From NCBI GenBank assembly GCA_043228905.1, contig JBHGNT010000008.1, positions 5,270,001 through 5,334,000 of the forward strand: 64,000 nt of DNA, read 5' to 3'. This stretch comes from Azolla caroliniana. Taxonomy: Eukaryota > Plantae > Polypodiophyta. A program made the translations under genes and the position numbers. Positions 511 to 59,929 of this stretch are shown here, one piece after another (position 1 is the stretch's first letter; each line of letters opens with the position of its first letter). The notes under the pieces were generated by a model. It made no database searches and was not told where the DNA came from. It was given only the letters and a program-made list of their open reading frames with translations.

Positions 511-3500
511 AGTACGCACATCGACAACAAGATGTTATACATGGAGGCAAATCGGCCCTGTGGTCGTGGTGGACGAGGGGGGTCAGCCGTAATGGAAGCG
601 GTTGACAAGAGCAGAACTCAAGGCATAATCGAAATGTCGACAACAACCGGACCCTCCACGAGCAGGGGGAGCCAAGGTGGCGCCGGAGATTGGCAAGGAA
701 AGGTCGTGTCAGACTGTTGGTACTATGGATGGAAGGGCCACAGAGACAGCGAGTGCTGGAAAAAATGAGTCGATTCGGACAAGGCTGGATCGAGTTGAGG
801 AGACGCGGATTGCGCCAGAGATCACACTACGTCGAAGGCTCGGGACGAGCCGAAATGGGTCTGGCCTTCGTAATAAAGCAAAAAGCCAACTTGATGGCGG
901 TGAACACCTCAAGGTCAAATGAGGTGTGGTACGTGGATTGGCGCATTGAACCACATGACAAATCACAAGGAGTGATTCTCAACTTTGGAAAAGCCGGAGT
1001 AGTTGGGGGTCGTCGAAACTGGCAATGACACCCGTCACCCCATTGAACGCATTTGAGATGTCCTTCTCAGCCATGTCGGTCAGAAGGGAATCATGAGAAA
1101 TGTCTTGCATGTGCCGACAATCACCAAGAACTTGGTGTCGGTCAGACAAATTGTTGACTAGGGCATGCAAGTTCGATTTACTCATCTCAGGTGCTTCATC
1201 GAAGAAGAAGGCAAGATCATCACGCAAGGGTGCCGAGGAGGGAGGATGTTCATTTTCAAAACAAACAACGTCGGCACCCCTATGTTCACCAAGGGGTAAA
1301 AAGTCGAATAAGACATCGACTTGTGGCACAAGTAGTTTGGCCACGTCAACTTCTTGCGGCTTTGGGAGATGCAAACAAAAAACATCGTTTTCGGCTTGTC
1401 GAAATTTAGTGGCCAAAAGGGTCAAGTCTGCAAAGCCTACTAGTTGGGGAAGCATCATTGACTTCCGATCCCAAGTGAAAGAAATTGGAGCTGAAACAAG
1501 CTCGATTTGATTCACTTGGATGTATGGGGACCGGCATAGAAGGTGGCTGATATTTCGCGACCTTCATTGATGACCTCACTCGGCATACTTGGGCATGCCT
1601 AATCAAGAAGAAGAGTGAAGTCTTCTCCCGCTTCTTAAAGGTGAAGAGCCTTGCCGAACGGGAGACTGGCCGAAAGATCAAGTGCCTCACGCCCGATGGT
1701 GAAAAGGAGTATTTTTCCGATCTGATCCCAAGTTATCTGTAAAAGGAAGGAATTTGATGTGAATTCTCCTAAAGATACATGCCGCAAAAGAACGACGTGG
1801 TCGAGAGGAAGAATCAGACGATTGAAGAAGCGGCCAGGGCAATGCTCGAAGAGAAGCATATGCCGAAATTTTACTAGGCCGAAGCCATCAGGACGGCGAC
1901 CTGCAGAATTGGACTTCTGCAAATGGAGGAGTGTCGCCACACGAGCTGTACTTTGGAAAGAAGCCGAATTTTGCACACTTGAGGATATTTGGTAGCATTG
2001 CATATGTGCATGTATTGAAGGAGAAGCGGAGGAAGCTAGAAGTGAAAGCCGAGAAGTGCATTCTCGTCAGCTACTCGGATGAGCAAAAGGGTTATATGTG
2101 TTATAACCCCCGAATGAAAGAGGTGCGAGTAAGCCGAGATGTCGTTTTCGACAAGTCGGCTTCGTGGTATTTGCCTTCACCTCCAATACCCATCTGTTCC
2201 ATTCTGAATTCTCAAGATGAGGCCAAAGAGGCCGATATTCACCTTGAGGAAGAGGAAATCGGAAGTGGGCCGAACGAGCGAATGAGTCGAATGAACCAAT
2301 CAGATGAAGACTCGGCCAGTAGTGGAGACTCGGTCGTGCAGTCCCCGCGCCAGAAATCGAGGAGACGGTTTACATGCAAGGAGAAGGGGAAGATGAGGAT
2401 GCCGGAATATGGTAGTGAGGTTGACACATCGGATCAAAGCGAATTTGATGTGGCCAGGAGCAAAGAGGGAGCTCCGAATATGAGGTCGAAGTCGGCTAAG
2501 AGGGCCATGAAATCGGCGAACCAGAAGTTACGTCGATCCACCCGCAAGACAAATCTCGTAATTTGGTACGGGTATAATGACTATATGGTGCATCATTATG
2601 CATATATGGCGAAGGTGGAAAATGTGTGTGAGCTGAAGAGTTACGTAGAAGTGGCAAAGGACACAAATTGGCATGCCATGATGGACGAAGAGATGCGTGT
2701 GCTAACGGAGAACGAGACTTGGGACCTAGTTGACACCCCCAAGGGTGTGAAGCCAATCGGATGCTGGTGGGTGTACAAGGTCAAGTACAACGCCGACAGC
2801 TCAGTCAACCGATATAAGGCCTGATAAATGGTGAAGGGCTACACACAAAAACATGGCATCGATTACGATGAGACCTTCATGCCAGTCGCGAAGATGACAA
2901 CTGTCCGTGTATTGCTAGCGATAACAGTGGCGAAGGGGTGGCACTTACATCAGATGGATGTAAAGAACATGTTCCTGCAAGGCGATCTTGAGGAACAAAT
3001 GTACATGGTACAACCCCCCGAATTTCTATCCGAATGAAACACCTTGGCAGTTTGCCGATTAAAGAAGTTGTTGTATGGACTTAAGCAAGCCCCGCGTGCC
3101 TGGAACGCGAAAATCACGCAAAGATTGCGTAAGATGGGGTTTGCTCCATCTAAATCGGACTCTTCATTGTTCATTCGGCTGAGTTGGACCAGACTGATCA
3201 ACATTTTGTTATATGTTGATGATTTAGTCATCGTCGATGCCGACCTTGGAGAAATCAGCCAAGTAAAGTCTCAGTTTGCGGCATCATTCGAAGAGAAGGA
3301 TCTGGGGGAACTTCATTACTTCCTCGGGATCGATGTGATCTGAGCCCCCGAAGGCATATTAATAAGCCAATGCCATTATGTGCTGAATATGCTCTTCAAG
3401 TTCAGGATGACGGATTGTAAATCCATCTCAACCCCTTTGGACAGAAATGTGAAGCTTCGCCGAGATTCGGGAAAGACGTGCGATCCGACACGATTCCAAC

Positions 3501-4180
3501 AAATTGTTGGAAGTCTCATTTACTTGATGATCACTCAGCCAGATCTTAGCTACGCGGTCAGCTTGATCAGTCAATTCATGTCGCATCCAAAGGCCAAACA
3601 CCTTCAGTGCACGCAAAGGATATTGCGATATGTCCGTGGCACTATGGATAGGGCGTTGCTGTATTGGGCAGGAGTAACCCAAGAGTTAATCGGCTACACG
3701 GATGCCAATTGGGCCGGAAATGCCGACGATCGCAGGTCAACATCTAGATTCTTGTTTTCTTTGGGAAGCGTTGCGATCGCTTGAAGTAGTAAAAAGTAGA
3801 AGATAGTGGCACTGTCGAGCACTGATGCCGAGTATCAAGGGACTACTCTCGCTACGTGTGAAGCCATTTGGCTCAAAATGCTATTAAAGGATCTGCATGT
3901 AGAGGTGTCTGAGCCAACAGTCATATACTGCAACAACCTTAGCAGCATCCAGTTATTGAAGAACCCCGTCTTCCATGCTCGGACAAAGCACATCGAGGTG
4001 TACTATCACTTCGTCCGCGAGCGAGTCCTTTAGTGAAGTCGAATTTATTTATGTTCCAACCGATTGGTAGGTTGCCGATATCTTCACTAAACCTCTTGGC
4101 CTAGACAAGTTGCGGCAATTCTCGGGCATGCTTAGCATACAACACCTCGATATGCCGAACTTGAAGGGGAGGAGTGAAGT
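36..4180 (+). pseudogene. copia gag-pol, fragmented by stops and frameshifts
   Basis: ORF fragments 268-768, 1931-2824, 2828-3037, 3044-3343, 3380-3784 and 3806-4033 are consecutive pieces of gag/INT/RT/RH. Confidence 0.92.
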
Positions 4181-5364: not shown

Positions 5365-6060
5365 TGTCGTGCCTTTCGGCGCTGGATCGTTTGCGTGAGT
5401 TGGGTGGGAACCATTGGGGTTTTGGAATAGGAGAAAGAAGAATATGAGATAATGTTAGTTAGGAAGAGATTGTAAGAAGAAGATATGAAACTCGTGAATC
5501 CCACGAGTATAATGTTTTAATGGGTAATTAGATTGTAAGAGAGAATTAGATGGTAAAATCGTGAATCCCACGAATATTTTGTATTAATCAATCCTTCTAA
5601 AAAAAATCAACAACCCTATACATCTTTCTCTCTTCCTTATATAGTGTTGGAAGAGTCTAAGTTTATCACATGCAAGCATCATGCTTTTCCTAACTTTAGT
5701 TTTCATGCACACTGCATGTGCATGATTAGCTTTACTTTAGTTTTCATGCACACTACATGTGCATGATTAGCTTTCTATCCCATCTTTTCTTTTAACTCGA
5801 GTGTGTATGCATGAATAACTTTTTGTACCATGCATATCTAGAATATTTACATGCAATAAAGTTTAGTATAACTTTAAAATTCATAGTATGGTAGTATAGT
5901 GGTAAGGTTGGGGATTGTTTACGTGGAGGTACAAGGTTCGAATCTTGCCCTAAGCATGTAATAAATATTTTTAATATTTTATTTATTATTTATTATACGT
6001 ACTCTAAATCAGATATAGTGTTTTACATATTTCACGTAGTGTGTGATTCACACTACGACA
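5365..6060 (-). repeat. 3' LTR of element B
   Basis: Near-identical to 11725-12420. Confidence 0.96.
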
Positions 6061-6116
6061 CTCGCCCCCTCCGAACCCGCACATCCTCCGGTATGTGCCG
6101 AAGTCCCCGATGCTTG

Positions 6117-9100
6117 CTATTCACCTTCATCCGAAGCTTCCTCCGATTCTCCCCTTAAGTCAACTATGAGTTGTAATCCACTTTCTTCGCTTTCCGCATC
6201 ACCGCGATCTTCGTCCAATTGCTCCTCCTTGTCAGACTTATCTAGGATCACATAGGGTTCTTCATTAGTCCACTTTTTGAAAATCTTCACCCGTTTCCCG
6301 GCTATAGGCACTCGTAGTATCGTTCCATCCAACTCGCATAGTCGGTAAGTTCCGTTGTCGAAAACTTTCTGAACCTTGTATGGCCCGAACCACCTTTTCG
6401 CGAACTTCCCCATCGTTGTATGTTGATGATCCAAACTACTATCGTAGACAATCACCCAATCTCCTTCTTCAATCTTCCGCAGTCGTAGTCGATGCTTTGT
6501 GTCGAACCGGCTTTTATTCCAGAATCGCGCTTCTTGTTGTCGGCGCATTGCTTCCTCTATGTCTTTTGGTCTTCCCTCTAGTTGTCGTATCCGGACTGCT
6601 AGTAGTTCTTCCCGGCTCATCTATTCCTTCCACGGTAGCATTGTCCATGTTGCAATCGTGGTTTTCGTTGGCATTACCAGTGCTTGTCCGGTCATGAGTT
6701 CTGTTGGCATGTAACCGGTTACGGAGCTATGCGTCGTCCGATCCGCCCATAGTGCATACAAGAGCATCTACGGCCAATCCTTCACCCTTCCATCGCATGC
6801 TTTGGCAAGTGCTTTGACAATCGGACTATGTCCTCGTTCGATTTTCCCGTTGGCCTCCGGATTGTATGCCGTTTTGTTAGTGTTAACCGAACTCCATGTT
6901 TGGTGAAGAATTCCTTAGCTTTATCAGAGTCGAGTTCTCCCCGATCCGCAATCACTTGTCCTACGCACCCGTACCTGCAAAACACCTCCTCCAAAAGAAA
7001 TTAGCATACCGTAGAACACGTTTTCCTTCGTAGCGCCCGACCTTCTACTTGGTTTGTGAGATCTTCCCGAGCTAACACCAAGTACTTCTTTTGTCCGATC
7101 CCGGTTGGCATGGCTACAATATCGACCATCCACTTGAAGTTGATTGTCGGTGAGAATGTCGGATGTAACTCATCTCGATGTCGAACTCCGGAGTAGATTT
7201 GACACTTCTCGTAGCTTTCCGGGAACTCCACTATATCTTTGTACATGTTCTTCCACCAATATTTTTGTTTGATTTTTACAAAAGTTGCCCATGTTCCTCG
7301 ATGTCCAGCCCAATCGGATTCATGAAACTCGGACATTATCTAGTTTCGTTGCTCTTTTGTCCCAACTACTCGAAGTGGTATGCCATCTGGTCTTTTCGGC
7401 TCCCTCCATATTAATCCATTTTTCAAGAAGAACTTTCGGACTTGCCACTTCTTACTTCGGATCTCGGCTCTCTTCTCTTTATTGTCTGATGATTCCTCGA
7501 TTTCTTGTAGCACTTTACCGATCAACAAGCTTTCTCCCTCGTATTCTTCTTCCCGGAATTCTCGGATTATGTTCACCCGGCATATGTGCTCCGAAGCAAA
7601 GTAGTCTTCGGAAATTTCTTCATTATCAGATTCGGTTATGTTGTCTCTGAACTGCGCCCTTGATAGCATATCCGCTACCGCGTTGTCTTTTCTGGAGATG
7701 TGTCGTACCTCCGGATTAAGTGACTTAACATATGCAATCCACCTTAGCATAGCCACATCTAGTATCGTGCAACACCGCATCATCCCGAGTATCAGAAGAC
7801 AATCCATTTCGATCACTACTTCGGCTCCAATCAAATAATCTCGATCCGATTTGATTGCCGACACGACTCCCCATAATTCTCTTTTGACTTGTGCATATCC
7901 GCGTTGCCTTTAGTTGAGAACCTTTGCTCTGAATCGGATTGGATATCATGAACCATCCGAGTCGGCTTGATTGATGACCCATCTGATTCTGGTTGGACTT
8001 GTGTCAACCGTTACTATAACCGGTCGGTCATAGTTCGGCTTCTTTAGTGCTTTTGGTCTCCGTAGTGATTTCTTGAGCTTCTTCACAGCTTTGGTATGCT
8101 CCGGTTTCCATTCGAACTTCTTCCCCTTCCGCAACAAGTGATAGAGTGGGTCCACAATATGTGCATAGTGCGGAATCCATATGTGATAGAATGCACACAC
8201 TCCAAGAAACCTTCGGACTTCGGATTGTGACTCGCACACTTCTCTCATAGCTTGAATTGCATCGATCTTGGTTGGTGATGGTCTTCAGCCGTAGGGCCCA
8301 CATAGATGTCCAACTACCAATATTTCTTCTTGCCCGAATGCCGATTTCTCACTGGAAAGTGTTAGGTGCACATCTTCTAACTTTCGAAGCACTTTCTCGC
8401 AATCACGAATATGGTCGACTACGAACTTTCGGCATCCCCGATCATCCATAGTTTCCTCTTTTTTTTCTACCGCGCATCCTTTCATCGGAATGTCATCTAG
8501 GAACAACATCGTTATCTTCGGAATGTAGTCTCGAAGCACCTTGTTCATTGCATTCATCATATGTGCGACCGAGTTTGTCGCTCTTTGTGGTAGTGTGCAC
8601 ATTCGAACTAATCCTATCGGTGTTCGCATGGTAATGATGTCTCGGCTCTCCACAACTAGTTGGAATTGGTCATACCCCGAGTATAGGTCTCCGATGGAGT
8701 ATATCGCACGACTGGTAAATGCTTCCGCAAATTCGTCCACTATCGGACCGACTCCGGAGTTCCGGATTGTGACCTTGTTCACCGGTTGCAAGTCTTGGAT
8801 AAATCGGAGTGACCCATTCTTCTTCGGAACCGTAAACCATCGATTTGAGTATGGAGCGTTTGATGGCTCTAGAATCCCCATCGCCACTTTCTCCTTGAGC
8901 AAGTCGATGATTTTGGGAATATGCGCCCGCGGCATCGGAATCAGCTTCAAGTTCCATGGCACATGGTCAATCATGAAGATCACCATCAGCTCCACTATCT
9001 TTGGATCAACGCACCCAATCTCTTTCGATGCAAATGCAAATGCTCTTCCATGTTGCTCCAGCATCTCACGGAATCGTTTTTCTTCATTCTTTAAGAGGAA

Positions 9101-9661
9101 CCCACCTCCACTGATCCAAAGTTTCTTCCGGGTCTCATCCGTGAAGGTATGTCCGATATCCACGGACTTTTGAAGTGTTAGATCTCCCGAGACTTCTTTC
9201 CTCTTTTGTTCGCTATCGGCGGGTAGCCGTCCCGCAGCCGGTTTCACTTTCTTCTCCACGGTCTTGTATTTCGTACTTACCATTGCTTCTTCTTTGAGGA
9301 GCACATCCGGCCCCATTTTTGCAATGATCTCGTACATCTCGACTGATTCCACCGGAATTACCCGGTCTCCTTGGCTATTTTCTTTCGCAAGCTCTTCAAG
9401 CTGTTGTAACATGCTCCCATAGAACACTTCTTCGACTACCCCCACGATTTCTTCATCTTCTTTTATTATTAATGCCGACCGTAACTTATCCTCTACCTTT
9501 CGGTATTCTTTCTTCATTCCTCCGGTTATGGCCATGTACGTAGATGCCCCATCCTGACCGATTCGTACTTGTTTTGCTCCGAGAATTTTCTTCCTGTGTG
9601 GGGTATCAGGGCTTCTCAGACTATCACTTCCCCACTCCACAATAGCCTGCTCTAAAAATCC
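6117..9661 (-). pseudogene. pol (RT-RNase H-integrase) of element B
   Basis: RT motifs DLYSGYDQF, LPQRATNS, FLDDIP; RH VTVDTS; INT HRGTWATF..YWW..CQ; several frameshifts and stops. Confidence 0.92.
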
Positions 9662-11707
9662 ATCCTTGTTTGGGACAAGAGCTCTCTCTTCTTCCTTTCA
9701 TGATTTGTCGGCACAGTTAGGAATTGGACGGATTTCCCTCCGCTTTGGCTCCGAATTTGTGCGAAAGCCGCACCGCTATCGAGCACCTTTGTCTTCATTC
9801 GTGAAGCCGTGATAAAGGGTTGCCCGAGGATCACGGAATGTGAGACCTCGTCTTGTACGAAGAAATTTTGGTCGATCTCGACATCCCCGATCTTCACCGT
9901 CACATCTGGACAAGCCACAAACAGATCTTCCGTTGCTTTAGTGGCTGCCCAGATCTTCCATCCATGGTTAGTATTTATAGGCCACTTCCCCTTCCGGTAG
10001 AACTACTTGGACATCAAATTGATCTCCGATCCGTGATCAATCAATGCTAGCACGAGCTCTTTGATGTTGCCGATTCAGATCGGAGTCTCCGTAGTTGCAC
10101 GTGACCAGTGTGGCCTTGTGTAGTGGGAGTTCGGTATTTCATCCTCCACTTCGGTGTCATTCATTAAGACGGTATTTGCATTCACCCTTGGAACATTTTC
10201 CTCCGTACTTTGTTTTTTTCTCTTCACGAGATCCACAAGAAGATCGTGGAACTCCTTCTTCGCTATTCCGAGTAATTCCCGAAGTGAAAATTCTACCTGA
10301 CTATCGAGGATTCTCTCCTCAAACACCTTTTTCAAGTTCGTTTGTTGTTCTATGTCCGAGGCGAGCTTGAATGCCGGAATCGTCTTTTCTTTTCCCTTCC
10401 CTCCGGAGTTCTAGCTTTCTGGTGTCTTCGATGGTCCGGCCGCATCATCCGTGCGCCGTCGTTTTTCATCCACATACACTTCATGCAATTGACATAGCGC
10501 ATGTACACTATTCTTATCTACGGGGCACTCCCATCCCGTAGCTTCCTAGATACATTCCGCAGCGCTTCGGATCTCATTGGATTCGGTCTTCTCGGGGTTT
10601 TGTAGCACATCTAGCCAAAAGGAGGCCTTTGCTACAGATGACTCCCCCACACGTATTCCCGTGGTTGTCCCATAATTGTCTTTCGCCACGATCTCCTCCT
10701 CTAGGACCTTCTTCATGCCGCCTTTCCGGAAGTTCGGTCGGAGTGGCTTCCGAGAATCCATCGAATGAATCCGATTTCCCTCGTAGTAGATAAGAACTTG
10801 TTGTAACGCCTCCTTGTGCTCGTCGCAATCTCTCGTTCGATGCTATCGCACCATATGCATCGACGGTTCATGTACTTGGAACTTGTGGGACGGTCTTCCG
10901 ACTTCTTCACCATTGCGATTTTCAGATTCTCATCTCCTTCAACAATTGCTCCACCTTGGTTGCGTTGATTCCCTTCTCGGTCGTAGTCTCTCGAGCCCGC
11001 GGTTGATGGTCTTCCAATCCGGATCTCCGTTTCGGAATACGTTCCGAAACCCTCTTTTCTTCGTTGGCAAGCCATTGCCCCCTCTTTGTGTATCGCGCGA
11101 CGATATCCCGCACGCTTTCCCATGTTTCGATGAGGCCACTCTCGGTAGTCGTGTCCTCTAGAAGCACTCCAAGATCCTTCCGGTCCTTGACGTCTACGGC
11201 TCGTAAGAACATGATAACTTTGTCCGGTGCGAGGATAGCTTGATCACTCGCAGACAACCTCCCGAACCGACTTTTGAATGCTGAAAATACATCGAGGACC
11301 TTCATCCCCTTGTTCAGCGTTTCCACCCAATCCTCAAATCCTCTCTGCATTGCCTTGGAGGAGTCCTCGATAGTGAACGTGGTCTTTAGCGCCTCTTCAA
11401 ACGCTTCCCACGTCGGATTTTGTTGTCGTAGCCTATGGATACTTGCTTGAAGCCCGTCGGTAGCTACCCAATTGAAGGATGTCACTTGCAATCCTTTCGA
11501 AATCCCACACCGTATCATTTCCGCCTTGTAGTCCCAAAGATAGTGTGATACGTCCTTTCCGTTGAATTGCCCGATCCGTTGCACGAGCCGCTCTACTGCC
11601 GCCGCTATCTCTGACATCGCACGTTGTTCTTGAAGCATCCGCTCGAACATCATCATCATGTTGTTAGCCTCTTGTTGATTCTCCATCTCCTTGCCACCCG
11701 TTTTCAC
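9652..11707 (-). pseudogene. gag-protease of element B
   Basis: gag FNGKDVSHYL, zinc knuckle remnant RCIWCDS, aspartic protease LIDHGSEIN near 10020-10050. The frame ends D-F-stop at 9652. Confidence 0.88.
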
Positions 11708-11720
11708 GTTGGGTTCACCA
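11703..11720 (-). promoter_or_regulatory. Primer-binding site complementary to tRNA-Trp 3' end
   Basis: Minus strand TGGTGAACCCAACGTGAA; plant tRNA-Trp ends ...TTCACGTCGGGTTCACCA (one mismatch). Confidence 0.85.
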
Positions 11721-11724
11721 AATG

Positions 11725-12420
11725 TGTCGTGCCTTTCGGCGTTGGATCGTTTGCGTGAGTCGGGTGGGAACCATTGGGGTTTTGGACTAGGAGAAAGAAG
11801 AATATGAGATAATGTTAGTTAGGAAGAGATTGTAAGAAGAAGATATGAAACTCGTGAATCCCACGAGTATAATGTATTAATGGGTAATTAGATTGTAAGA
11901 GAGAATTAGATGGTAAAATCGTGAATCCCACGAATATTTTGTATTAATCAATCCTTCTAAAAAAAATCAACAACCCTATACATCTTTCTCTCTTCCTTAT
12001 ATAGTGTTGGAAGAGTCTAAGTTTATCACATGCAAGCATCATGCTTTTCCTAACTTTAGTTTTCATGCACACTGCATGTGCATGATTAGCTTTACTTTAG
12101 TTTTCATGCACACTACATGTGCATGATTAGCTTTCTATCCCATCTTTTCTTTTAACTCGAGTGTGTATGCATGAATAACTTTTTGTACCATGTATATCTA
12201 GAATATTTACATGGGATAAAGTTTAGTATAATTTTACAATTCATAGTATGGTAGTATAGTGGTAAGGTTGCGGTTTGTTTATGTGGAGGTACAGGGTTCA
12301 AAGCTTGCCCTATGCATGTAATAAATATTTTTAATATTTTATTTATTGTTTATTATACGTACTCTAAATCAGATATAGTGTTTTACATATTTCACGTAGT
12401 GTGTGATTCACACTACGACA
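11725..12420 (-). repeat. 5' LTR of element B
   Basis: Near-identical to 5365-6060 and adjacent to the PBS. Confidence 0.96.
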
Positions 12421-15686: not shown

Positions 15687-16727
15687 TGTTTCGGCCTAGA
15701 ACTCCAGCTTTCGTCCGGCTGACGACTTCGATAGGTTGTCGACTGCCTTTGAGGGAAGTTCAACATGTTCCCGATATCAGATTGAATCTTATATTGACTG
15801 GAAGGTTGGATGATGAAGGCTATAGTGGTAGCTTTCGAAACGGCAAGTGGAAGTTCTGCCGAGGAAATCTCATAATGGCCCAAGCACAAAAAGAGGGCAC
15901 TCTATATATGATTCATGTCCGATTGTGCAAGTCAGAAGTGAATGTGGAGAGTTGCGGCATAAGAGACTAGGCCACATGAGTGAAAAGTGAATGCATATCC
16001 TGGCCGACTAGGAACTTCTCTTAGAAGTGAAAGGTGTACACTTGGAGAAGTGTGTCGACTGCTTAGTCGGAAAGCAGAACAGGACAACATTCCACTTAAG
16101 ACCAATGTGAAGAAGAGAAGTGCCACTGGAAATGGTACACACAGATGTGTGCTATGTAGATGCTCCATCACATTGTGGTGGACAGCACTTTGTGACATTC
16201 ATTGATGACTGCAGTCGAAAGTTGTGGGCTTTCATACTAAAGTCGAACGACCAAGTATTGTCGTTCTTCGAGGAGTTCCATGCAAGAACTGAAAGAGAGT
16301 TAATCGGAAGTTGAAGGCTGTCCGAACTGACAACGATGGCGAATATAGAGGGTAGTTCAAAGAATATTGCAAGGCCCAAGGTATTCGAATCAAATACACA
16401 GTACCGAAGACCCTTTAGTTGAACGAGCTTGCAGAGAGGATGAATCGAGCAATCATGGAGAGAGTAAGGAGTATATACGCTCTCTCATGCTAAATTGCCG
16501 AAATCGTATTGGGTTGAGGCGATGTATACAACTATTTATTTGATCAACAAGTCTCCCTCAGTGCCATTGAATGGTGACGTTCCACAGAGGGTGTGGACGG
16601 GAAAGGATGTCTCCTACCGACACCTGAGGGTGTTTGGATGCTTAGTGTATATGCATGTGGTTAAGGATTAGAGGTTGAAGCTTGACAGTAACTCGAAACC
16701 ATCCATATTCATGGGATACTCGAAGGC

Positions 16728-17153
16728 TAACAATCGGCAACGGTTCAGTTCGGTTTGAGAGGGTCCAAACCAAACCGTTTAATTTTTTTGAAACTTGAAC
16801 CAAACCGAACCGAACCGAACCACAAAACCGTTAAACCATTAAACTGTAAAAACCGTGGATTCGTGGTTCGGTTTCAGTTTTCAACATAGGTCAACTTTTT
16901 AATTTTTAAATTTTTTTAAAAATTTCAAGATGGGCCTAAAATGAAAAGATTTTTTAAAAACAATCTTTTAATTTTTTAGAATTTTTTTGAAAATTTTTAA
17001 TTTTTTAAAAATAAAAATAAAAAATAAAAAACCGTTTAACCGTTTAAACCGTAGTTTTTGACTGTTGAAACCGAACCGAACCATTGAAACCGTTTAGTCG
17101 TTAAACCACGGTTTAGCGGTTCGGTTTGGTAATGTAATCGTTGCCAATTGTTA
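16728..17153. mobile_element. Non-autonomous TIR element (MITE) with AACCG/CGGTT subterminal repeats, copy 1
   Basis: TIR TAACAATCGGCAACG...CGTTGCCAATTGTTA. Removing it restores the copia integrase frame (GYSELYEFGYKLWD). Second copy at 46588-47058. Confidence 0.88.
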
Positions 17154-17542: not shown

Positions 17543-20500
17543 TGTCATGAACATCGACTCAAATGTGAACCTTAGGCCCTTGTATATATATTTCTCCTAG
17601 ATAAACTTTAGACTTCAAACCTTTGTATAAAGAGTGGTATGTAAGACTGAGTATGTAAGATTGAGTATGTAAGACTTGGCATGCAAGAATTAGTATGCTT
17701 GATATTATAATATGTAAGACTTGGCATGAGCATGCTTATCATGCATCACTACATGTATAAAAAGGGTTGATCTCCCTTGTTAACATCAAGGAGATCAACA
17801 CCAGTCATGGAATAGATATTCGTACTCATTGTCATCAACTTATCCATCTCTCTATCTCATCAACTTACCCATCTCTTTGGCTTCCAATTGTTCATCCGTG
17901 ACAAATTGATCTCCTTCTTTCATTCTTTCCTTCTTTCCTTCTTTCTCAATACACTATCATGTCAAAATCATCTAGTAATCTTGAGCAAATTTTGGCAGTC
18001 GTGCAACAACTCCAACATGAAAATGAGAACTTGCGAAACTCTGTTCAAGAACTTTAAGCAGCCACACCGGTTATACCTCACCTGATTGTAGACCCTTATG
18101 TTGTAGAACCCAATGTCAGCTTGCTAGACAAATTCGATGGAACAAGGTCACGGCTAAGAGGTTTCATCAACCAAATCCACCTTATTATTCGTCTTCAGCC
18201 CCGACGCTATTCTGATGACTTTAGACAAGTTGGGCTCATCGGCACGTTGCTGACAGGACAAGCACAAGCTTGGTTTGCCCCTCTAGTGGAGACCTCTTCA
18301 CCTCTCTTGAATGACTTCCAAGCATTTCTTACCGAATTTGAGGCAACTTTTGGGGAGACCGACATACGACGAGCCGCACTCAACAAACTATATGCGTTAC
18401 AACAAGGCAATCGTGCATCATCAATCTATGCATCTGAATTTCGTCAGCTCGCGTGCGATGTCGAGTGGGACGGACAAGCCCTCCTCAATCAATTCCGCTG
18501 AGGATTACGAGGTGAGATAAAAAATCTTTTACTTAATTTTCCGGAGCCCACATCTTTGAATGAGGCTATTTCCCAAGCTGTGCGCTGCGAGAACCGTCTC
18601 TTTGAGTTCCGGCAAGAGGAACGTCCTCACCGGATCCATCCACCTTGGCCAGTCGCTACGCGAAGTCACCTACCATGGTTGATGACACCGCCTCCCATGT
18701 CATCCTCCACTTCATCTTCAACTCCCGCCACTGATTCTAGCTCGCCAATGGATCGATCGAATTTGCTATTGACCATTGACTAATGTGCAACGACAACATC
18801 GACGAGCCAACATTTTTTGTCTCTATTGTGGCGGCCCTGACCATTTGATCCGCTCTTGCCCAAAAAGGGACCCCGTCAAACACCACATCGTGTGGATGGG
18901 GTTGACATTTTTGGCCAATAGGAAAACTACAATGTCTAGTTGAAGTAGGGCCTGTGCATCTGGACCACAAGAGTTGACAATTATGTCAAGGGCCCAATCA
19001 ACCGACTTCCTCGACAACAAGTTTCTCGATTCCGATCACTCTTCAATTTGGGTCTACCACTCTGAAGACAAAAGCTTTGTTGGATTCTGGGGCTACGTTG
19101 TGCTTTATTGACATCATGTTTGCACGGAAACACAACATTCCAAGCAACAAATTAACCGTCCTGATTCCAGTAGAAGTGATCGACAGTCGAACGCTCTCTT
19201 CTGGTGCCATCACAAATACAACAATTCCCTTGGGTCTCCACATAGGAGCCCACTAGGAAGAAATCACTTTTAACCTCATCACATCACCTCAACATCCTAT
19301 CATCTTGGGGTTATCATGGCTCGAAACTCACAAGCCAGTTGTGGATTGGCGATCTCGCTCCATCAATTTCACCTCAAATTTTCACTCACAAGGTATTACG
19401 TCCACCCTTCTTCGAGCCAATGCTCCATCATTTGTTTGGCCGCCTACTCCGGTGAGGACCGTCTCAACGGTTGCTCCCACTCATGTTTTTGGGACACCTC
19501 CCGTTTCTACTCCAATGAGAACCACATCAATGGTTGCTCCGATTCCAGTTTCTGCTCCAGTGAGGACCGTGTCAATGGTCGCTCCCACCCATTTTTCAAG
19601 GGAAACTCCCATTTATGCTTCGGTGAGGACCAGGTTATTAGTCCCTCCCATTTCCTCTTCAGCAAGAACCATGTTAGCGGTTGTTCCAATAGAAACAACA
19701 TCGATAGTTAGTCTCGTGTCGTCCTTGGAAACAGTTCCAACTCTTGCTCGGGTAAGCGATACAATGCTGATTGCATCCATTTCTAATTCTAAGGACATGG
19801 TGGTCATGTCCACTTTAGATACTACCCTATGTACTAGCTCTTTTCCATCAAAATACAATGATTTCTCTGATGTATTTGAGAAGAAAAATGCTGATCACCT
19901 GCCCGAACATCGCCCATACGATTGTCCAATTGACTTGAAAGATGGTGCTTGTCCTCCATTTGGCCCTATCTATCAAAATATACATTGAAGAGAATCTCGC
20001 AAAAGGATTCATTCGACACTCAAAATCTCTAGCTGGCTCTCCTATTCTATTTGTCAAAAAGAAAGATGGAACATTGCGCCTATGTATCGACTATTGCAAG
20101 CTCAATCGAGTCACGGTTCGAAACTACTTTCCACTACCTCTAATCCCCGAACTCCTCGACTGACTTCGGGCTGGGCGTATATTCTCCAAAATCGATCTCA
20201 GAGGCGCCTACAGCTTGGTGCATATCAAGCCTGGAGATGAGTGGAAAACGACATTTCGAACCAGGTATGGGCATTTTGAATACATGGTAATGCCATTTGG
20301 TCTCACAAATGCTCCTGCCGTTTTCCAGCATATGATGAATGACATCTTCTGAGAATATCTAGACCAATTAGTGGTCATCTATCTTGACGACATACTTATC
20401 TTCTCACAAGACTACATAGAACACACCAAGCATGTCCGACTTATCTTGAACAAACTTCGGGAACATGGACTTTATGCGAAACCCGAAAAGTGTGAGTTTG

Positions 20501-27680: not shown

Positions 27681-28774
27681 ATTGCATTGCATGTATATGT
27701 ATTCTTCCGTTGCTTCATGTGAGTTGCGTTTTCGAAATTTTATGTGGTACCGCTTGGTATTTTGAAATTTTAATATTTACCTTTATGTTTTTGAAATTTT
27801 ATTGTTTGTCCTCTAGTTTTGGAAATTTTCTCGTATGCCCCTCCTGCCTTACTTCTTTCCTCTATTGTCATTGTCGTGAAGATTTTCGGCAATGGTGTGA
27901 AAATAACATAAAACTATAAAAGGATGAAGGTCTTGAAGAGCTTTCAGATACACTTTACTACATAAGAAACAGACATATAAGTGTAAACTTATGTGGGTAT
28001 AAAGTTTTGCAAAAGAAAAAAAGAAAAGAAAAATGTGAAATATCCCAAATAGATAGGAAAGTTAAGGCCCTGGCTATATAAGCACATTGAGATCCCTTAT
28101 TTCTCATTTTGTGCAAAGAGCACTTTGGCCACTTTGTCTAGATGGATGAATGTGGCCAAATTCCCAAAAACCGACTGACAATAAAATGGAACCGGTCGGA
28201 AATCCATTCGGAATCGGCCGATAAACTAGAAAGCAAACCGGAACCGGCCGGTCGGCGACGGATCTGGCGATGGAGACGCCAACTGGCGTCATCCGGCATC
28301 CGATTATCATGCACCACATGTAATACATGAGATAATACTTTTTTCATTATAGTTTTACATGTAAATTCTGATACATGAGACCTTAAATGAGTGACGTGGT
28401 TATCATGCACCACATGTAATACATGAGCGTCAAATGGCAAACATACATTTTATGCATGTCTTGTACCCTCAAATGCATGAGGGCATCTATAAAAGAGGGG
28501 GGATGTAAAATTTTTGGAGGCTTGGTACTTGATATCAAAACTAAAATTAAAAGTAAGAAATTCGTTATCCAATTGATGATATATCTTGTCTCTCAAAAAC
28601 TCTCTCTCAATCTAAAAATCAAGTGTTCTATCTTATCTCAATCTCTCTATTTCAATCTATCTTAAAACCTTTCTCGCTAAAGCTAGCACCAACTTCGAGT
28701 CCTTTCGGTCCAGAACCCCGGCGGTTCCGTCTCACGATCAACGCGTAGTGTCAGATCTTCACAACATAATTAAG

Positions 28775-28792
28775 TGGTGAACCCGACGTGAA
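28775..28792 (+). promoter_or_regulatory. PBS, 18-nt complement of plant tRNA-Trp 3' end
   Basis: TGGTGAACCCGACGTGAA, 8 nt after the LTR end. Confidence 0.88.
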
Positions 28793-28832
28793 AGAGGGGG
28801 CATGAAGGATCAAATCGAGGATCAACCGATAC

Positions 28833-31800
28833 TTGGAGATGGCGTCCTCAAGCAATCAAATGGGAGACTTCGAAAGGATGATGCTAATCATAGAACAAAT
28901 GATGAGATCTCGAGACAACGATGCGAGCGTGGAGAAGGCCGTCGACCGTGTCGTAGAGCTCAAGGGCCAATTTGATGGAAGGAACGTTACGAAGTTCCTT
29001 AGTGCATACAAAAGGGAGATGAATCAAAGAGACGTGTCTGAAGCACGACAAATCACGAGTTTCAAGAGGGTGGTCACCAACAACATCCAAAGACGCGTCA
29101 TCGAGCTTCAAGAAGGTAAGACAACATGGTCCGAGTTTGAGAAAGCAATATTAGTGGAGTTCGTGACTGAAGACTTAATGAGGATGACTCGACATGCCTT
29201 GATGAAGTGGATCGAAAAGAAGAATAAGAAGATGAGCGCCTTGAGGGTGTACGACGAATTCAACCAGATGTTTAGTCGTCTCCCCAACAGGGATCAAGTG
29301 CTGCTTGAAGAGGACAAGACTTTGTACTTCTTGAAAGCTGTGGACATGAAGGATAGAAGAGAATTGGGGACTCTTCTCGAAGATGATACCCAAGCAAATG
29401 GGCTTGTGGTGGACTGGGTTGCGGTGAAGCGAGCATGCAATAGGCTTGACAAGCATCGTTAGTGGGTTGATGACACCGACTTGGCGGGATTGACTGTTGC
29501 GGAGAAAACAAGACAACCGAAAGTAGTTGAGCTGCCCAAACAAAGCAACCCAGAAGAAAAGAAGATTGATGACAACATCATCAAAGAACTGGCGAAGAAG
29601 TTCGAGATGGTTACGCTAGCCAACATGAATCGTCAGGGGCCCAAAGGAAAAGAACCCTTTAGATGCGTGTGGTGCGATGGCATGGACCACATGAGAAGAG
29701 ATTGTTCGAGCCTTTGAGACACCATTCGACAAAATATCGTGTACATAGATGACAACATGATCTGCTCGAGCGAGACTAGAAGACCCCTACGGGTGAATTT
29801 CAGAAGAGGAGGAATGAAGAAAGCTATGGAGGATGTCGATGCGACTCATGTGGATGCGATGCACTATGCTGCATCGGCCGGAATAAGAGTCAGGAAAGAC
29901 AAGACTGAAGCTGCTAGAGCGGGAGCAAAGTTTTGGACTTCCATTCTCGAATATGAGAAGAATGGAAAAGTCACTTCGAACGAAGTAGAGCTTGCGGATC
30001 AAAGTGTACAAAGTATAACCGGATGATCGGATCCGGTGGATGACAACACCATACTCGCGGAGGTGATGTGCGACAACCACGAGGTGTTCATCAAAGAAAA
30101 GAGAAAAAAAATAGAAGAACAAGGCCCATAAAAAAGACATGAAACAAGGAACGCGAAAAAGAAAGAAGATGCGGAGACGAGTCAACCATTGCAAATGGAG
30201 GAAGGAGACGCAAGCCGAAAAGCAGAGTCGAGCAAACGAGTCGAAGAAACGGTTCGGCCCGTGAAGATTGGTGTCGAAGACCTCGCTCGGAGGACAAGGG
30301 CTATGCCTACCTATAAGTTAAGGTCGGACATAGAGCAGACGGCGGACCTAAAGAAGATTCTCGAAGAACATGTTCTTGATAGCCACGTGACTTTGTCCTT
30401 GAGGGAATTGCTTGGCATTACGAAGGAGTTCCATGACACAATCGTGGACCTTGTAAAGAGAAAAAGACAACAATCGGACGAGGAAGAAGAGAAGCCGCAA
30501 AAAGCAAAAATGAATGCCATAATGATGGCAAGAGACGAAGTCGATGAAGATATGGTGGACAACCAGTATACTCGACCTCATTGGGCACGAGCAACAACGG
30601 AGACGCCGGTGAAGATTGGGGAGAAGAAAGAGACCGTGGTAGCCTTGATCGACCACGGCTCGGAGATCAACCTCATGTCAACCGACTTCTACAAAAAAGG
30701 AAGATGGCCAATCAATACAAATCAGGGATGGAAGATTCGCGCGGCAACAAAGACTACGGAGGACTTGTACGGAGCTTGTCCCAATGTTAAAGTTACGATC
30801 GAGGATGTGGAAATGGATCAACACTTCTTCGTGCAAAAATCGGCGTCGGATCCTATCATCCTAGGACAACCGTATATCACATCATCTCGGATGGAGACCA
30901 AAGTGTTCGATAATGGAGCAGCCTTCGCACAAATAAAGAGTCTTGACAACCAAAGATCGGTCCAATTCCTGACGGTTCGAGCTAATCATGAAAGAAATCG
31001 AGATAGTCTTGGAGGCGAATCCCCGGATTTTTAGAGCGGACTATTGAAGCATGGGGCACAAATAGTCCGAGCAATCGCAAGTCCCCATAAGAAAGTAGAG
31101 CGCGTGGATTGCGAGGAGAAGCAACATGTGTCACACCTAGTGGTGCATGTAAACTAGTACTACTCGACAAGAAGGACAAACATCGGATACAAAACTTCGA
31201 GAAGATGCTGAAAGAAGAAAACATAATAGAAGAAGAAGAGTTCGTGAGTCATATTATGGAAGCAGCCTCATTTAACGACACCATCGGCGAAATCGAGGAC
31301 ATCGTGGACTTGAGCTATCTTCACGATCATCACGTGATTTCGGTTAGCTCCATCAACATGTACATTATCATCGATGAATATCATCGAAGCATCTTGATGA
31401 AGGAACCTGACGTCTACACAAAATATAAAATGGTGGATAAGAAGGTCAAGCCAATTGCAGTTCCACTACCGGAAGATAGTTGGCAAAAGATGAAGGAAGT
31501 CACTAACAATCCAAGCTTAAGAGATCCGAAGACAATAGGTAATGTCTTCACCAAAGAGACGAAGGGAAAGCTACGAGTTGGAAGGGAGGATTTCCTTCTC
31601 CTTGAAGAGGAGCGAAAGTTTCGCGACATGCTTGAGAGACATGGGAAGGCTTTCACATTTTTCCCACAAGAAATCGGATGTGCTGATCCAAGGGCGATAG
31701 AGCCGATGGTGATCTTCACGGTGCCACACGTACCTTGGAATTTGAAATTGATACCGGTTCTAAGAGCACACCTACCAAAGTTGATCGAGCTTTTAAAGAA

Positions 31801-34321
31801 GAAGGTGAATATGGGAATTCTGGAACCGTTGAATGCTCCTTATTCCAATAGGCGGTTCACGGTGCCGAAGAAGAATCGATCATTGTGATTCATCCAAGAT
31901 CTTCAACCCGTCAACAAGGTGACAATTCGAAATGCCGGAATCGGTCCAAGCGTGGACGAATTTGCCGAGGCGTTTGCGGGCCGGTCCATCTACTCCATTG
32001 GCAATCTCTACTTCGGATATGACCAATTCCAATTGGTGATCGACATTCATGACATTACAACCATGAGGACTTCGATCGGGCTTGTGCGGATGTGTACCTT
32101 ACCTCAAGGCGCAACGAACTCGGTGGCTCATATGGTGAATGCCATGAACAAAGTCTTGAAGGATTGTATCCCGGACATCACGATGCCATTCTTGGATGAT
32201 ATTCCGATAAAAGGATGTTTGGATGAGGAGAAAGATGAATCGAAAGATAAGGAAGGGTGTAGAAAGTTTGTCGCGGATCATATGAAAGATTGTGAGAAGG
32301 TGCTTCAAAGGCTTGAAGATGCGAATTTGACATTTTCGGGAGAAAAATCTGCATTCGGGCAACCAGAGATCTTGGTGGTAGGTCACTTGTGTGGAGCATA
32401 CGGATGGAATCCTTCGCCATCCAAAGTGAACGCGTTCCAGGGCATGAAAGAAGAATGTGAAAACCAAACGGAGGTTCGAAGGTTCCTTGGAGCAGCGCGT
32501 TTTATCATATCTGGATTCCTCACTACGCTCATGTCGCCGAACCGTTATATGGACTACTAAAGAAAAGAATGAAGTTCGAATGGCGAAGCGAGCATACAAA
32601 CACGATGCGAAGATTGAAGAAACTACTTCTTGAAGCTCCAACACTAAGAAAGGCCAACTATACCGAAAGGAAGCCGATTTATGTGACTGTAGATACGAGC
32701 CCAACCGGAATCGGGTGGGTCATCAACCAAGAAGGAGAAGATAATGTGGGATATGCCATCCGGTTCGGAGCAAAGGTTCTTAGCGAACAACAACAAAAAT
32801 ACGCCCAAGTCAAGCGGGAACTTTGGGGTATTGTGTCGGCAGTGAAGACGGACAAAGATTACTTGATCGGGACGGAAGTGATAATAGAGACAGATTGGCT
32901 CCCAATCCTCGGAATGATCTCGAGATGTACGACCCTAGATCTAGCTATGCTAAGGTGGATCGCCTTTATCAAGTCTTTAAACCTACAGATCCGTCACATT
33001 GCAGGGAAGAAGAATGCCATGGCTGATATGCTGTCAAGGGCAGGATTTGAAAGTGAAAGTGACATGGTTTCGGAAGATGAAGACGTCACCCTCGACTTCT
33101 TCAAGATGGCTCGATTATCGGCGGAAGACAAGCACACGCTAACCCTCCACGCCTTCAACGAGGACGAGTACGAAGGAGAGTGGTTACTGATCGGCAGATT
33201 CTTAAGAACATAGACGACGGATGCTTCGTTGACAAAGGAGGAGGCTCTACGAATCCAGAAGAAAGCTTATCGATACTTCCTTTGGCGACACCCAAAAAGA
33301 AAGATAGGAATACCACGCCGAGTGGTGGTGAAGAAAGAAGAGCAAGTGACGCTGGTGATTGAATTCCACGAGAGTGCTTGGGCAAGTCATAGAGGAACAT
33401 GGGCGACGTTTGAAAAGTTGAAGGAAAAGTATTGGTGGCCAAGCATGTACAAAGATCTACTCCATTTCATGTCCACATGTGAAACTTGTCAAGTACATTC
33501 CAACATACGTCATCGTGATGAGCTACGACCGACATACCCTCTCACCATACACTTCAAATGGATGGTTGATCTGGTCTCGATGCCAATGGGAGTGGGACAA
33601 ATGAAGTACTTAGTGCTGGCAAGAGAAGACTTGACAAATCAAGTGGAAAGGCGGGCCTTGACAAATAAGACAACGTCAGCTGTTTGCAAATTTCTACTTG
33701 AAGAGGTTGTCTGCCGATACAGATGTGTGGGGAAGATAGTCGTCGATCGATGGGAGTTGGACGCACACGAAGCAACGGAGCTTTTCGAACGACTAGGCAT
33801 GAACTCTCCCTCACGACTGCCTACAATCCAGAAGCGAATGGGAAGATTGAGCGAGGGCATGGAACCATAGTCAAAGCCATCGTATAAGCATGCAACAGTC
33901 TAGTCGGGAATTGGCCACGACTATTGCCCTATGCCTTGTGGGTCGACAGAACGACACACAACTCGGTGACAAGGTATATGCCAACGGAGCTTATGTATGG
34001 ACAAAAGCCGGTGATGCCCATTGAAAGGACGATCGCCTCATGGGTAGCGATACCATGGGAGAACGAGATGAGCTGAGAAGAATTATTAGCAGCACGGATA
34101 AGGCAACTTGAAAGGAGACTTGAAGATCTAGAACATGCGCGAAAAATGATGGAGGCAGCCCGAGTGAAGAACAAAATTCGGTTCGACAAGACACATCGAC
34201 TACGTCCTAAGAGGATCGAAGAAGGAGATTGGGTATTGGTCTACGACAACAGACTTGACAATCAACAAAGTACAACAAGAAAGTTCGCAAGAAGATGGTT
34301 CAGACCGTATGTGGTGATAAG
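28833..34321 (+). pseudogene. gag-PR / RT-RH-INT of element E
   Basis: ORF fragments from 28833 to 34370 are clearly homologous to element B proteins. Confidence 0.92.
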
Positions 34322-35357
34322 TTCTCATTTTGTGCTAAGAGCACTTTGGCCACTTTGTCTAGATGGATGAATGTGGCCAAATTCCCAAAAACCGACTGGC
34401 AATAAAATGGAACCGGCCGATAATGAAATCGGAATTAGCCGGAAATCAATTCGGAATTGGCCGATAAACTGGAAACCAAACCGGAACCGGCCGGTAAGCA
34501 AACCGGAACCGGCCAAAAAGCAAACCGGAACCGGCCGGTAAGCAAACCGGAACCGGCCAAAAAGCAAACCGGGACCGGTCGGTAAGCAAACCGGTCGGTC
34601 GGTGGCGTCATCCGGCGACGGAGGCGACATTTGGCGAACCGACAGTAACCGGTGGTAACCGTCAGCATCCGGCGAACCGATGGTAACCAGCAGCATCCGG
34701 CGAACCGGCGTTATCCGGTAGCATCCGGCGATCGACGGCATCCGGCATCCGGTGACCGGATAGATATATAAATAAATAAATAAGTATATGTATACATATA
34801 TATATATACACACAAGGAGTGCAAGTATATATATACACAAGGAGTGCAAGTGTGGATTTGAACCTTACACCTCCAAGTTGACAGTCTGTAGGCTTACCAC
34901 TAAGCCAAGACATTTTCATAAAATAACATTTTTGTCATTATAGTTTTACATGTAAATTCTCATACATGAGACCTTAAATGAGTGACGTGGTTATCATGCA
35001 CCACATGTAATACATGAGCGCCAAATGGCAAACATGCATTTTATGCATGTCTTGTACCCTCAAATGCATGAGGGCATCTATAAAAGGGGGGGGATGTAAA
35101 ATTTTTGGAGGCTTGGTACTTGATATCAAAACTAAAATTAAAAGTAAGAAATTCGTTATCCAATTGATTATATATCTTGTTTCTCAAAAACTCTCTCTCA
35201 ATCTGAAAATTAAGTGTTCTATCTTATCTCAATCTGTCTCTTTCAATCTATCTTAAAACCTTTCTCCCTAAAGCTAGCGCCAACTTCGAGTCCTTCCGGT
35301 CCAAAACCTCGTCGGTTCCGCCTCACGATCCACACATAGTGACGGATCTTCATGACA

Positions 35358-42259: not shown

Positions 42260-42647
42260 CTTTTATGGGTCGAGCTCTTGACCATTAGACCATACATTGT
42301 AATACGTAAAATATTATTTTCATTTATGTTTTATTATAGAAAATTGATGTATATTCTAGATTTCTCTGGAAATTCTAGAAACTTCAAGAGTATTCCTTAG
42401 AACACTATAAAAGGAGGCACAAGGCATTATTTCGAACCAAATCGGTTCAACGCCAGTCTTAAGCCTCCTAGCTATTACTGTACATTCTCTTCACATAATA
42501 TATATCTTCTCTTATCATCACTCTCTCTCTCTCTCCCTCCCTTTCACTCACTCTTTCCTTCTCTCGAGAGTTCTTCACCTCTCTTAGTACTAATACTTCT
42601 TTTAATACTAATTCCTTCTCTGTCTTAGTACTGTTCCTGACACTTTT
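42260..42647 (+). repeat. 383-bp tandem duplication of most of the F 3' LTR plus its TSD
   Basis: The LTR end TTCCTGACA-CTTTT-ATGG occurs at both 42259 and 42642. Confidence 0.93.
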
Positions 42648-44065: not shown

Positions 44066-44343
44066 GGGAAAAGTACTAGGATACCCTTGGAAGTTCGTCT
44101 ATTTACCAAAATGCCTCTGGAAGTTCCAAATTTACCAAACTACCCCTATGTCCAGCAAATTACATTTTATAAAGCAATTATACCATTTATTCCATATTTG
44201 GTAAATAGGGCTTGTAGATTTGAGTGTATAATTACTTTATAAAGTGTAAATTTTTGGACATAGGGGTAGTTTGGTAAATTTGGAACTTTCAGGGGCATTC
44301 TGGTAAATAGATGAACTTCCAGGGGTATCTTGGTACTTTTCCC
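44066..44343. mobile_element. Mutator-like MITE
   Basis: ~115-bp TIRs GGGAAAAGTAC...GTACTTTTCCC and a perfect 9-bp TSD TTTATAATA (44057-44065 and 44344-44352). Confidence 0.93.
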
Positions 44344-45543: not shown

Positions 45544-45647
45544 GGTGGAGGCAGAAGCTTCTGCATAACCATCTGCTTCTTGTGACATAACCAATCAATC
45601 AAAATAGGGAGCTACTAAAGTTAAGCAGCTCCAAGATTGTTAAGAGA

Positions 45648-59154: not shown

Positions 59155-59159
59155 GTATA

Positions 59160-59830: not shown

Positions 59831-59929
59831 ATAAATGAAAAAAAAGAAAAAAGAGGGCACGTATTTTTACCATTTCAAACGTGTTCGTTTCCAAACGTTT
59901 GAATGCTTGCACGGACACGAATATTACGT

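Follow-up and report, generated by a model that had tools for sequence, protein, structure and literature searches.

Sequences resembling the promoters of genes transcribed by RNA polymerase III (Pol III) have been described within the LTRs (long terminal repeats) of several retroelements. The closest case is Helenus (TRIMp3), a set of non-coding TRIMs of 311-1263 bp with tRNA-derived sequence in their LTRs (Kojima 2024, PMC10886601). In Helenus, as in the elements considered here, this sequence is conserved around boxes A and B and mostly corresponds to no functional tRNA. Its origin was proposed to lie in tRNA or SINE capture, and one of the families comes from a lycophyte (PMC10886601). In the LTRs seen in the supplement of that paper, the tRNA part is in the sense orientation, lies near the 3′ end of the LTR and is thought to drive the element. 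In contrast, the carriers considered here are gag-pol elements of 5-7.5 kb with a Pol II TATA-like box, and their tRNA-like cassette lies upstream of this box and is mostly divergent. Kojima also mentions that tRNA-like sequence occurs in "not a few" of the LTRs in Repbase, the analysis being confined to TRIMs, and argues that autonomous elements need Pol II (PMC10886601).

Cassandra TRIMs likewise have a Pol III promoter captured in a plant LTR, but it is 5S-derived (type 1), the element is non-coding and the promoter is that of the element itself (PMC10886601). Simian foamy virus is a coding, Pol II-driven retroelement with A/B-box Pol III units in its LTR. These units have a demonstrated miRNA hairpin product, and the accessible part of the report states no tRNA-register layout (PMC3993851), whereas the cassettes described here are known from DNA alone. 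The gypsy element Ty3, whose primer binding site (PBS) is bipartite, has anti-tRNA sequence in U3. That segment matches the primer tRNA (PMC5371799), whereas the present cassettes mostly do not, and they also occur in the sense orientation and in a self-primed element.

Two groups of gypsy elements provide the frame for classification. Phygy has a 4-bp NCGN target site duplication (TSD) and, in 81%, a tRNA-Trp primer (Neumann 2019, PMC6317226); these marks are shared with elements B and E and a solo LTR described below. Tcn1 combines a chromodomain with self-priming (PMC6317226, PMC2864245), as do elements F and D. A tRNA-like LTR module is not mentioned in the accessible parts of these descriptions, nor was the arrangement found in those of PMC2864245, PMC3286476, PMC2774510, PMC10533338, 10.1101/2022.12.06.519325 and 10.64898/2026.03.01.708851. 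The literature searched holds no account of it; subscription journals, Repbase reports and bioRxiv supplements lay outside the search and may hold one. The earlier note on this DNA, made from the letters alone, knew of no description. This has to be narrowed: tRNA-like sequence in LTRs is known from Helenus (PMC10886601), and what appears to be new, no description having been found, is a cassette upstream of the TATA box, mostly antisense, in coding gypsy elements.

Host Elements

The window, which is the whole 64-kb stretch of DNA analyzed, consists of nested LTR retrotransposons stacked around a single short gene-like ORF. The elements relevant to the cassettes are as follows.

5365-12420, minus strand: element B, 7.1 kb, gypsy pol domains without chromodomain
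5365-6060, minus strand: B 3′ LTR, Phygy-type, TSD ACGT/ACGT, 97.6% identity to the B 5′ LTR
11725-12420, minus strand: B 5′ LTR, then a tRNA-Trp-type PBS at about 11703-11720
27872-35357, plus strand: element E, 7.5 kb, gypsy pol domains without chromodomain
27872-28766, plus strand: E 5′ LTR, cassette-free; PBS at 28775-28792
34322-35357: E 3′ LTR, 5′-truncated, cassette present
36602-37028: F 5′ LTR (element F: Tcn1-like, with chromodomain and pol domains, about 5 kb minus its insert)
37031-37042, plus strand: self-priming site of F, the complement of LTR positions 218-229
38659-39289, minus strand: Phygy-type solo LTR inserted in the RT region of F, TSD GCGT/ACGT
41840-42259: F 3′ LTR, cassette present
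42265-42642: third, partial F LTR, first 42 nt missing, B box included
60149-60588, minus strand: Tcn1-like solo LTR with a weak cassette

The 4-bp NCGN type of TSD is common to B, E (TCAT/CCGT, with two transitions) and the solo LTR at 38659-39289, and B and E also have the tRNA-Trp-type PBS. One and the same PBS is found in B, E and at 12 sites in 11 related loci; we take it to be of the Trp type from a row of the Phygy supplement and the tRNA end. Elements F and D have the chromodomain PF00385 and complements of their LTRs (12 nt and 11 nt) after the 5′ LTR, and a tRNA-type PBS was not seen in F. By these marks (TSD, PBS, chromodomain and self-priming), the carriers are placed in two gypsy lineages, as the earlier note had it: Phygy-type (B, E and the solo LTR at 38659-39289) and Tcn1-like (F and, weakly, the solo LTR at 60149-60588). 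These lineages suggest a non-seed land plant as the host. The Tcn1-like side rests on F, the weak copy at 60495 and one F-type LTR in a related locus (L026).

Several other features were observed in the window. The third F LTR is 99.7% identical to the F 3′ LTR and its 5′ end begins within the cassette hairpin; it is either a recent tandem duplication or an assembly artefact. The gene-like ORF (45641-46015) is short and GC-rich, has the appearance of a gene for a secreted cysteine-rich peptide, and is the sole host-like gene seen in the window. A young non-autonomous LTR element, H (54393-57698; LTRs 99.8% identical), is nested in the 5′ LTR of element G, and its single ORF of 565 codons has no Pfam match. 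A foldback element lies at 44065-44344, with inverted arms of 119 bp that are 90% complementary. Two copies of a MITE-like element (16725-17150 and 46585-47060) are rich in AACCG repeats, and these repeats give rise to false B-box matches.

Cassettes in the Window

The boxes were sought with the textbook consensus patterns, TRGYNNARYGG for the A box and GGTTCRANYC for the B box, 40-48 nt apart. The 64 kb contain four perfect pairs and six at no more than one mismatch, against means of 0.00 and 0.01 in 100 block-wise dinucleotide shuffles of the window. All six lie within LTRs and are antisense to the element. The A and B boxes of the cassettes are 43-44 nt apart, a tRNA-like spacing, and such pairs far exceed those in shuffles. 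The cassettes of the window are listed below with one possible relic.

5886-5956, plus strand: cassette of the B 3′ LTR, antisense to the element; A box 5892-5902, B box 5935-5944
12246-12316, plus strand: cassette of the B 5′ LTR; A box 12252-12262, B box 12295-12304 with one mismatch, T5 run 12328-12332
34844-34912, minus strand: cassette of the E 3′ LTR; A box 34907-34897, B box 34864-34855
36608-36674, minus strand: cassette at the 5′ end of the F 5′ LTR; A box 36671-36661, B box 36627-36618, TATA-like box 36785-36793
39096-39166, plus strand: cassette of the solo LTR 38659-39289; A box 39102-39112, B box 39145-39154, TATA-like box 38917-38925
41846-41912, minus strand: cassette of the F 3′ LTR; A box 41909-41899, B box 41865-41856
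60495-60560, plus strand: weak cassette of the solo LTR 60149-60588; A box 60499-60509, B box 60542-60551, TATA-like box 60346-60355
17562-17615, minus strand: possible relic in the LTR of element D, in the same place as in F; B-box-like sequence alone, A box absent

In the B 3′ LTR, a T5 run follows about 12 nt beyond the cassette end and the A box is 248 bp from a TATA-like box (5635-5644). In the E 3′ LTR, the TATA-like box (35078-35086) is at 171 bp and a T4 run is absent within 60 nt.

The seven tRNA-like segments reported earlier were all recovered at their coordinates and strands, with one correction of letters: the 12246 copy reads GGTTCAAAGC, not GGTTCGAATC. Each LTR was scored against 300 of its own shuffles with a matrix whose training included no sequence of the window, and all seven cassettes outscore 300/300 shuffles. 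The scores are 47.9 and 43.2 bits for B, 48.7 for the E 3′ LTR, 46.5 for the solo LTR at 39096, 36.6 for both F LTRs and 13.6 for the copy at 60495. The last was already described as weaker, which agrees with its score, near the 13.4 bits reached at a coding position in the window. The segment in the LTR of D scores 6.1 bits, above 300/300 shuffles but as one among 20 regions tested, and its reading as a cassette relic is doubtful. The scan gave no cassette in the E 5′ LTR, the third F LTR, G, H, H2, the LTR at 27021 and five copia LTR regions (for one of them, the part right of B only). In the E 5′ LTR, about 165 bp are swapped for a 29-bp filler copied from downstream; the cassette has been lost by deletion with filler. 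The cassette sites counted as five LTR types by the earlier note all stand; five separate origins do not follow, since the E LTR and the solo LTR at 39096 are related.

One further region gave tRNA-like scores outside any delimitable LTR. It is a tandem array (59155-59900) of about five units with T-rich tracts, 40 bp of which match the related locus L054. Its units at 59594-59646 and 59759-59811, both on the minus strand, reach 21.0 and 20.6 bits, the former value being above all shuffles of the array.

Distribution in Related Loci

The B integrase end, aligned with 46 of the 120 listed homologues, was used to fetch related Phygy-type loci, and the best 80 of 287 confirmed loci were taken. 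The loci were thus found by integrase alone, which also defined the families I01-I18. In this sample, a single accession series accounts for 78 of the 80 contig names, and several rows are identical or nearly so. The 3′ LTR was scorable in 53 of 80 loci; the other 27 were left out for a contig end or an interrupted or rearranged LTR, and among them L030, L055, L074 and L077 all have less than 450 nt and no match.

A cassette is present in 29 of the 53 scorable LTRs and absent from 24. It is antisense in 22, cut in half by a contig end in one (counted as antisense where 23 are given) and sense in six. Antisense cassettes belong to families I01, I04 (the half), I05, I06, I07, I14 and I17, and sense cassettes to I03, I08 and a nested LTR in L037. 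Families I02, I12, I13, I15 and I18 are cassette-free. The rule that the cassette is always antisense therefore holds in the window and fails beyond it (23 antisense against 6 sense, and none in I02). The cassette is also dispensable, because I02, the second largest family found, has none in 16/16 scored rows and three of the four scored I04 rows are without one. In I01 it is present in 13/13 scored loci. Family I07 has two antisense cassettes in tandem and a sense unit farther downstream. In L060 and L071, the two tandem antisense cassettes of U3 are joined by a sense one at about 660 nt of the LTR and downstream of its TATA box; this is a Helenus-like position, yet in a coding family. When the integrase tree (54 rows) is rooted at its midpoint, both halves include carriers, and the pattern of presence takes at least 7 gains or losses.

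With each family left out of training in turn, its cassettes score 16.8-49.4 bits, and no shuffle maximum exceeds 17.0. Among 55 coding controls, a score of 16 bits was reached once, probably in L020, which has an inverted LTR piece inside. In 268 kb of loci, every match of at least 16 bits lies within an LTR or LTR fragment. The F-type LTR of L026 has the same cassette type as F; this solo LTR (1480-2340) sits in a DNA-transposon-like repeat in which the cassette end is copied twice more, inverted. Sequences headed by a tRNA and SINE-like, unlike the LTR cassettes, occur outside LTRs in L042 (about 3530-3600) and L054 (about 3040-3160).

The earlier note had left room for cassettes that are copy-specific SINE insertions with TSDs of their own, and this is not so. 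No TSD was found around the seven cassettes of the window, whose flanking repeats of 6-7 nt are the same as in shuffles. Together with the cassette in 13/13 scored I01 loci, this rules out copy-specific insertion. The cassette is an inherited module of the LTR, because 29 of 53 related LTRs carry one, usually upstream of the TATA box.

In public DNA contigs of four organisms, the U3 of B is covered in 4/4. The summed depth of the 3′ half of the cassette exceeds that of the U3 body about 2-3-fold in one organism (X1), about 5-fold in another (X4) and several hundred-fold in two (X12 and X13), contig depths not being copy numbers. The loose ends of contigs over this half lead to other A boxes and T runs. 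The excess shows that the 3′ half of the cassette is widely shared, and it fits many LTR families and a free SINE alike.

Conservation of the Boxes and Number of Captures

The earlier note held that the boxes are conserved while the anticodon arm is scrambled, and this is the case. Between nine groups, identity is 0.67 in the A box, 0.38 in the anticodon arm, 0.67 in the variable loop and T stem, 0.78 in the B box and 0.30-0.33 in the flanks, the values for the boxes being partly built in, as cassettes were picked by their boxes. Comparison within I01 (12 rows; L011 and L045 excluded as truncated) bears out the proposed conservation of the boxes over the rest of U3. The fixed letters of the boxes reach an identity of 0.86, and base-matched U3 letters, taken as background, one of 0.63 (p 1.5e-4), the latter being lowered by misalignment; the nearest flank has 0.72 and the anticodon arm 0.76. 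The 53-nt core has 0 gap openings, as against 14, 19, 20 and 26 in four equal flanks. The contig variant table holds no B-box variant of 5% or more, but it is biased by seed matching and is not counted as evidence for conservation.

The cassette is the sole BLAST-detectable homology of the B, E and solo 39096 LTRs besides a shared terminus of 31 nt. Outside the boxes, I01, I14 and I17 cassettes share 63-73% although their integrases are distant, and sense and F-type cassettes have 18-49% in common with the antisense types of Phygy. As these two kinds differ from the main antisense type, the cassette was probably captured more than once; the sequences point to several captures, plus exchange or strong constraint among families.

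The B box has not been spared by decay. Its C56 and G57 are changed in 7 of 12 assembled I01 rows, the CpG being intact in 5/12. Around the cassette, 41 of 102 CpG cells are intact, as against 371 of 586 at the integrase end, where coding CpGs are also held by selection. Old copies show no methylation-free patch, because CpGs near the cassette are less intact than at the integrase end. For the anti-silencing role suggested in the earlier note, this decay counts against a lasting methylation shield, and any protection given by the cassette would not be lasting.

Fold and Terminator

The cloverleaf is lost. The covariance model of Rfam (RF00005), which the earlier note had proposed as a check, gave no match at E<=10 in the window cassettes and none in 16 loci, and ARAGORN called no tRNA in the window or in 34 related loci (0/34). 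For the stems of the anticodon arm, T arm and acceptor, pairing does not improve on that with partners swapped between 13 groups (anticodon stem: own 0.40, swapped 0.47), which rules out a functional tRNA, and so a tRNA product is not the thing kept. The acceptor pairing GTATGG/CTATGC that had been pointed out in the 12246 copy lies outside the tRNA register, and across the cassettes such pairing does not exceed that of between-family swaps.

An alignment across families gave no common RNA fold (covariation term 0, consensus energy -1.3 kcal/mol), and most single cassette folds have z above -2. The F cassettes fold as one long hairpin (z -4.65 for 36608-36674 and -3.93 for the other), as does the F-type cassette of L026 (-4.0). 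In many antisense Phygy cassettes the B box sits in a hairpin loop, its 3′ partners differing by family. By raw count, 25 of 36 cassettes have a T4 run in the next 60 nt, and such a run is absent from the cassettes of E, F and solo 39096 in the window; T runs follow five of the six sense cassettes.

In tRNA numbering, position 33 is an invariant U. This letter was not part of the consensus or of the matrix. It is T in all but one of 11 groups, a value reached in 85 of 20000 shuffles; shared descent weakens it as evidence. Positions 44-47 are nearly fixed (0.97 or more), and positions 43-47 fit what we take to be the m7G46 motif.

Position Relative to the TATA Box

The placement of the cassette upstream of the LTR TATA box, as first reported for the window, extends to the related loci: in 23 of 29 rows, the A box is separated from a TATA candidate by 114-299 bp. 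The distance from cassette to LTR end varies from 69 to 585. The 5′ flank is 79% AT, with A-rich sequence before the cassette and T-rich sequence after it, and this polarity flips together with the cassette in the sense family I08. A pyrimidine-A step at -14/-13 in the 5′ flank is a possible start site. Between cassette and TATA box, CATGCA (RY-like) motifs are repeated in Phygy-type U3 (window 5640-5860 and 38930-39040); they could possibly be bound by B3 factors.

Possible Roles of the Cassette

The cassette may be described as a decayed tRNA-gene look-alike in the U3 of coding gypsy elements. We put at roughly 50% the probability that it acts in cis as a type-2 Pol III promoter, docking TFIIIC and TFIIIB beside the Pol II promoter. 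A site for these factors at the level of DNA fits best, because the boxes and their spacing are kept while the stems are lost, either orientation occurs and the TATA box is near. TFIIIC would bind the A and B boxes and load TFIIIB onto the AT-rich 5′ flank. In a new insertion, the bound patch would leave few nucleosomes on the LTR promoter and would stop read-through from neighbouring elements, until the B box is killed by methylation; a short transcript ending at the T run, if any, would be a by-product. In this way, the docking of host tRNA-gene transcription factors would likely help the promoter of the element to stay usable. In yeast, Sir spreading is limited by TFIIIB/TFIIIC (PMC9540200), and upstream Pol II read-through transcripts are stopped at TFIIIC sites (PMC4228148). 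A limit to silencing and a block to read-through would both benefit an LTR landing inside other elements. Several points count against a promoter acting in cis. A Pol III complex on the 3′ LTR would be in the way of the element's own transcript, TFIIIC binding does not account for U33 and positions 44-47, the cassettes of E, F and solo 39096 have no near T4 run, I02 thrives without a cassette, and the CpG of the B box has decayed in most I01 rows.

Other roles differ in what they take to be kept. An RNA product of Pol III, tRNA-like or a hairpin, about 85-110 nt in length and serving as a decoy or a source of small RNA, would explain why U33 and the variable-loop letters 44-47, hallmarks of tRNA at the RNA level, are retained. 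The long hairpin of F and the B box held in a hairpin loop in many antisense Phygy cassettes would agree with it, and the LTRs of simian foamy viruses contain Pol III miRNA genes (PMC3993851). We consider it unlikely: families share no fold, most single folds are unremarkable, a near T run is absent at several cassettes, and antisense RNA is impossible from sense cassettes, so that the antisense small-RNA role suggested in the earlier note cannot hold for I03 and I08. The cassette could instead be a passenger, formed by tRNA or SINE heads that inserted repeatedly into ancestral LTRs and were carried without benefit. Its patchy presence on the integrase tree, the large families that do without it and the CpG decay of the B box speak for such a history, as do the SINE-like tRNA heads in L042 and L054; conservation between families is partly built in by the search, and the several hundred-fold depth in two organisms could also come from a free SINE. 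This is nevertheless quite improbable, given that the cassette is nearly the sole homology of the B, E and solo 39096 LTRs, that the I01 core combines zero indels with higher identity, that matches of at least 16 bits in 268 kb keep to LTRs or LTR fragments, and that the window cassettes have no TSD.

A role in reverse transcription would require an antisense copy in U3 in a fixed register, both of which are seen. In the genomic RNA, such a copy would anneal to the primer tRNA at its D and T arms and aid the first strand transfer. The similarity to tRNA stops at C61, where the PBS takes over, and a tRNA-Lys3-like stretch is present in the U3 of HIV-1. The 3′ half of the bipartite PBS of Ty3 is a precedent (PMC5371799). 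We regard this role as very improbable, since the T-stem 5′ strand of the primer, deduced from the PBS and compared at positions 49-52 only, matches the cassette at 0-2 of 4 letters in all Phygy U3 groups (11 in number) but I07, which has 3 of 4, the same PBS serves families with antisense, sense or no cassette, and F is self-primed, yet has the cassette.

Implications

The reading of the cassette as a docking site for TFIIIC and TFIIIB can be carried further, tentatively. In a non-seed plant, two coding lineages of gypsy elements, distant from each other, may have captured tRNA-type promoters repeatedly. Kept upstream of the TATA box at about the length of a nucleosome, these would form a portable boundary of TFIIIC/Pol III and protect new insertions from silencing and read-through. 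This is possible rather than probable. A review of barriers names tRNA-gene insulators in animals and yeast, plants not being named in its accessible part (PMC9540200).

For annotation, such cassettes can lead to too many SINEs or pseudo-tRNAs being counted in genomes of this kind. The coexistence of families with antisense, sense, doubled or no cassette on the same primer site is a natural comparison for TFIIIC insulation in plants. The observations bear on the means by which LTR retrotransposons of plants remain active where the genome is packed with elements and heavily methylated. If the portable boundary is real, the elements would have borrowed an anti-silencing device acting in cis from the tRNA genes of the host, and this would provide first evidence for working tDNA barriers in plants.
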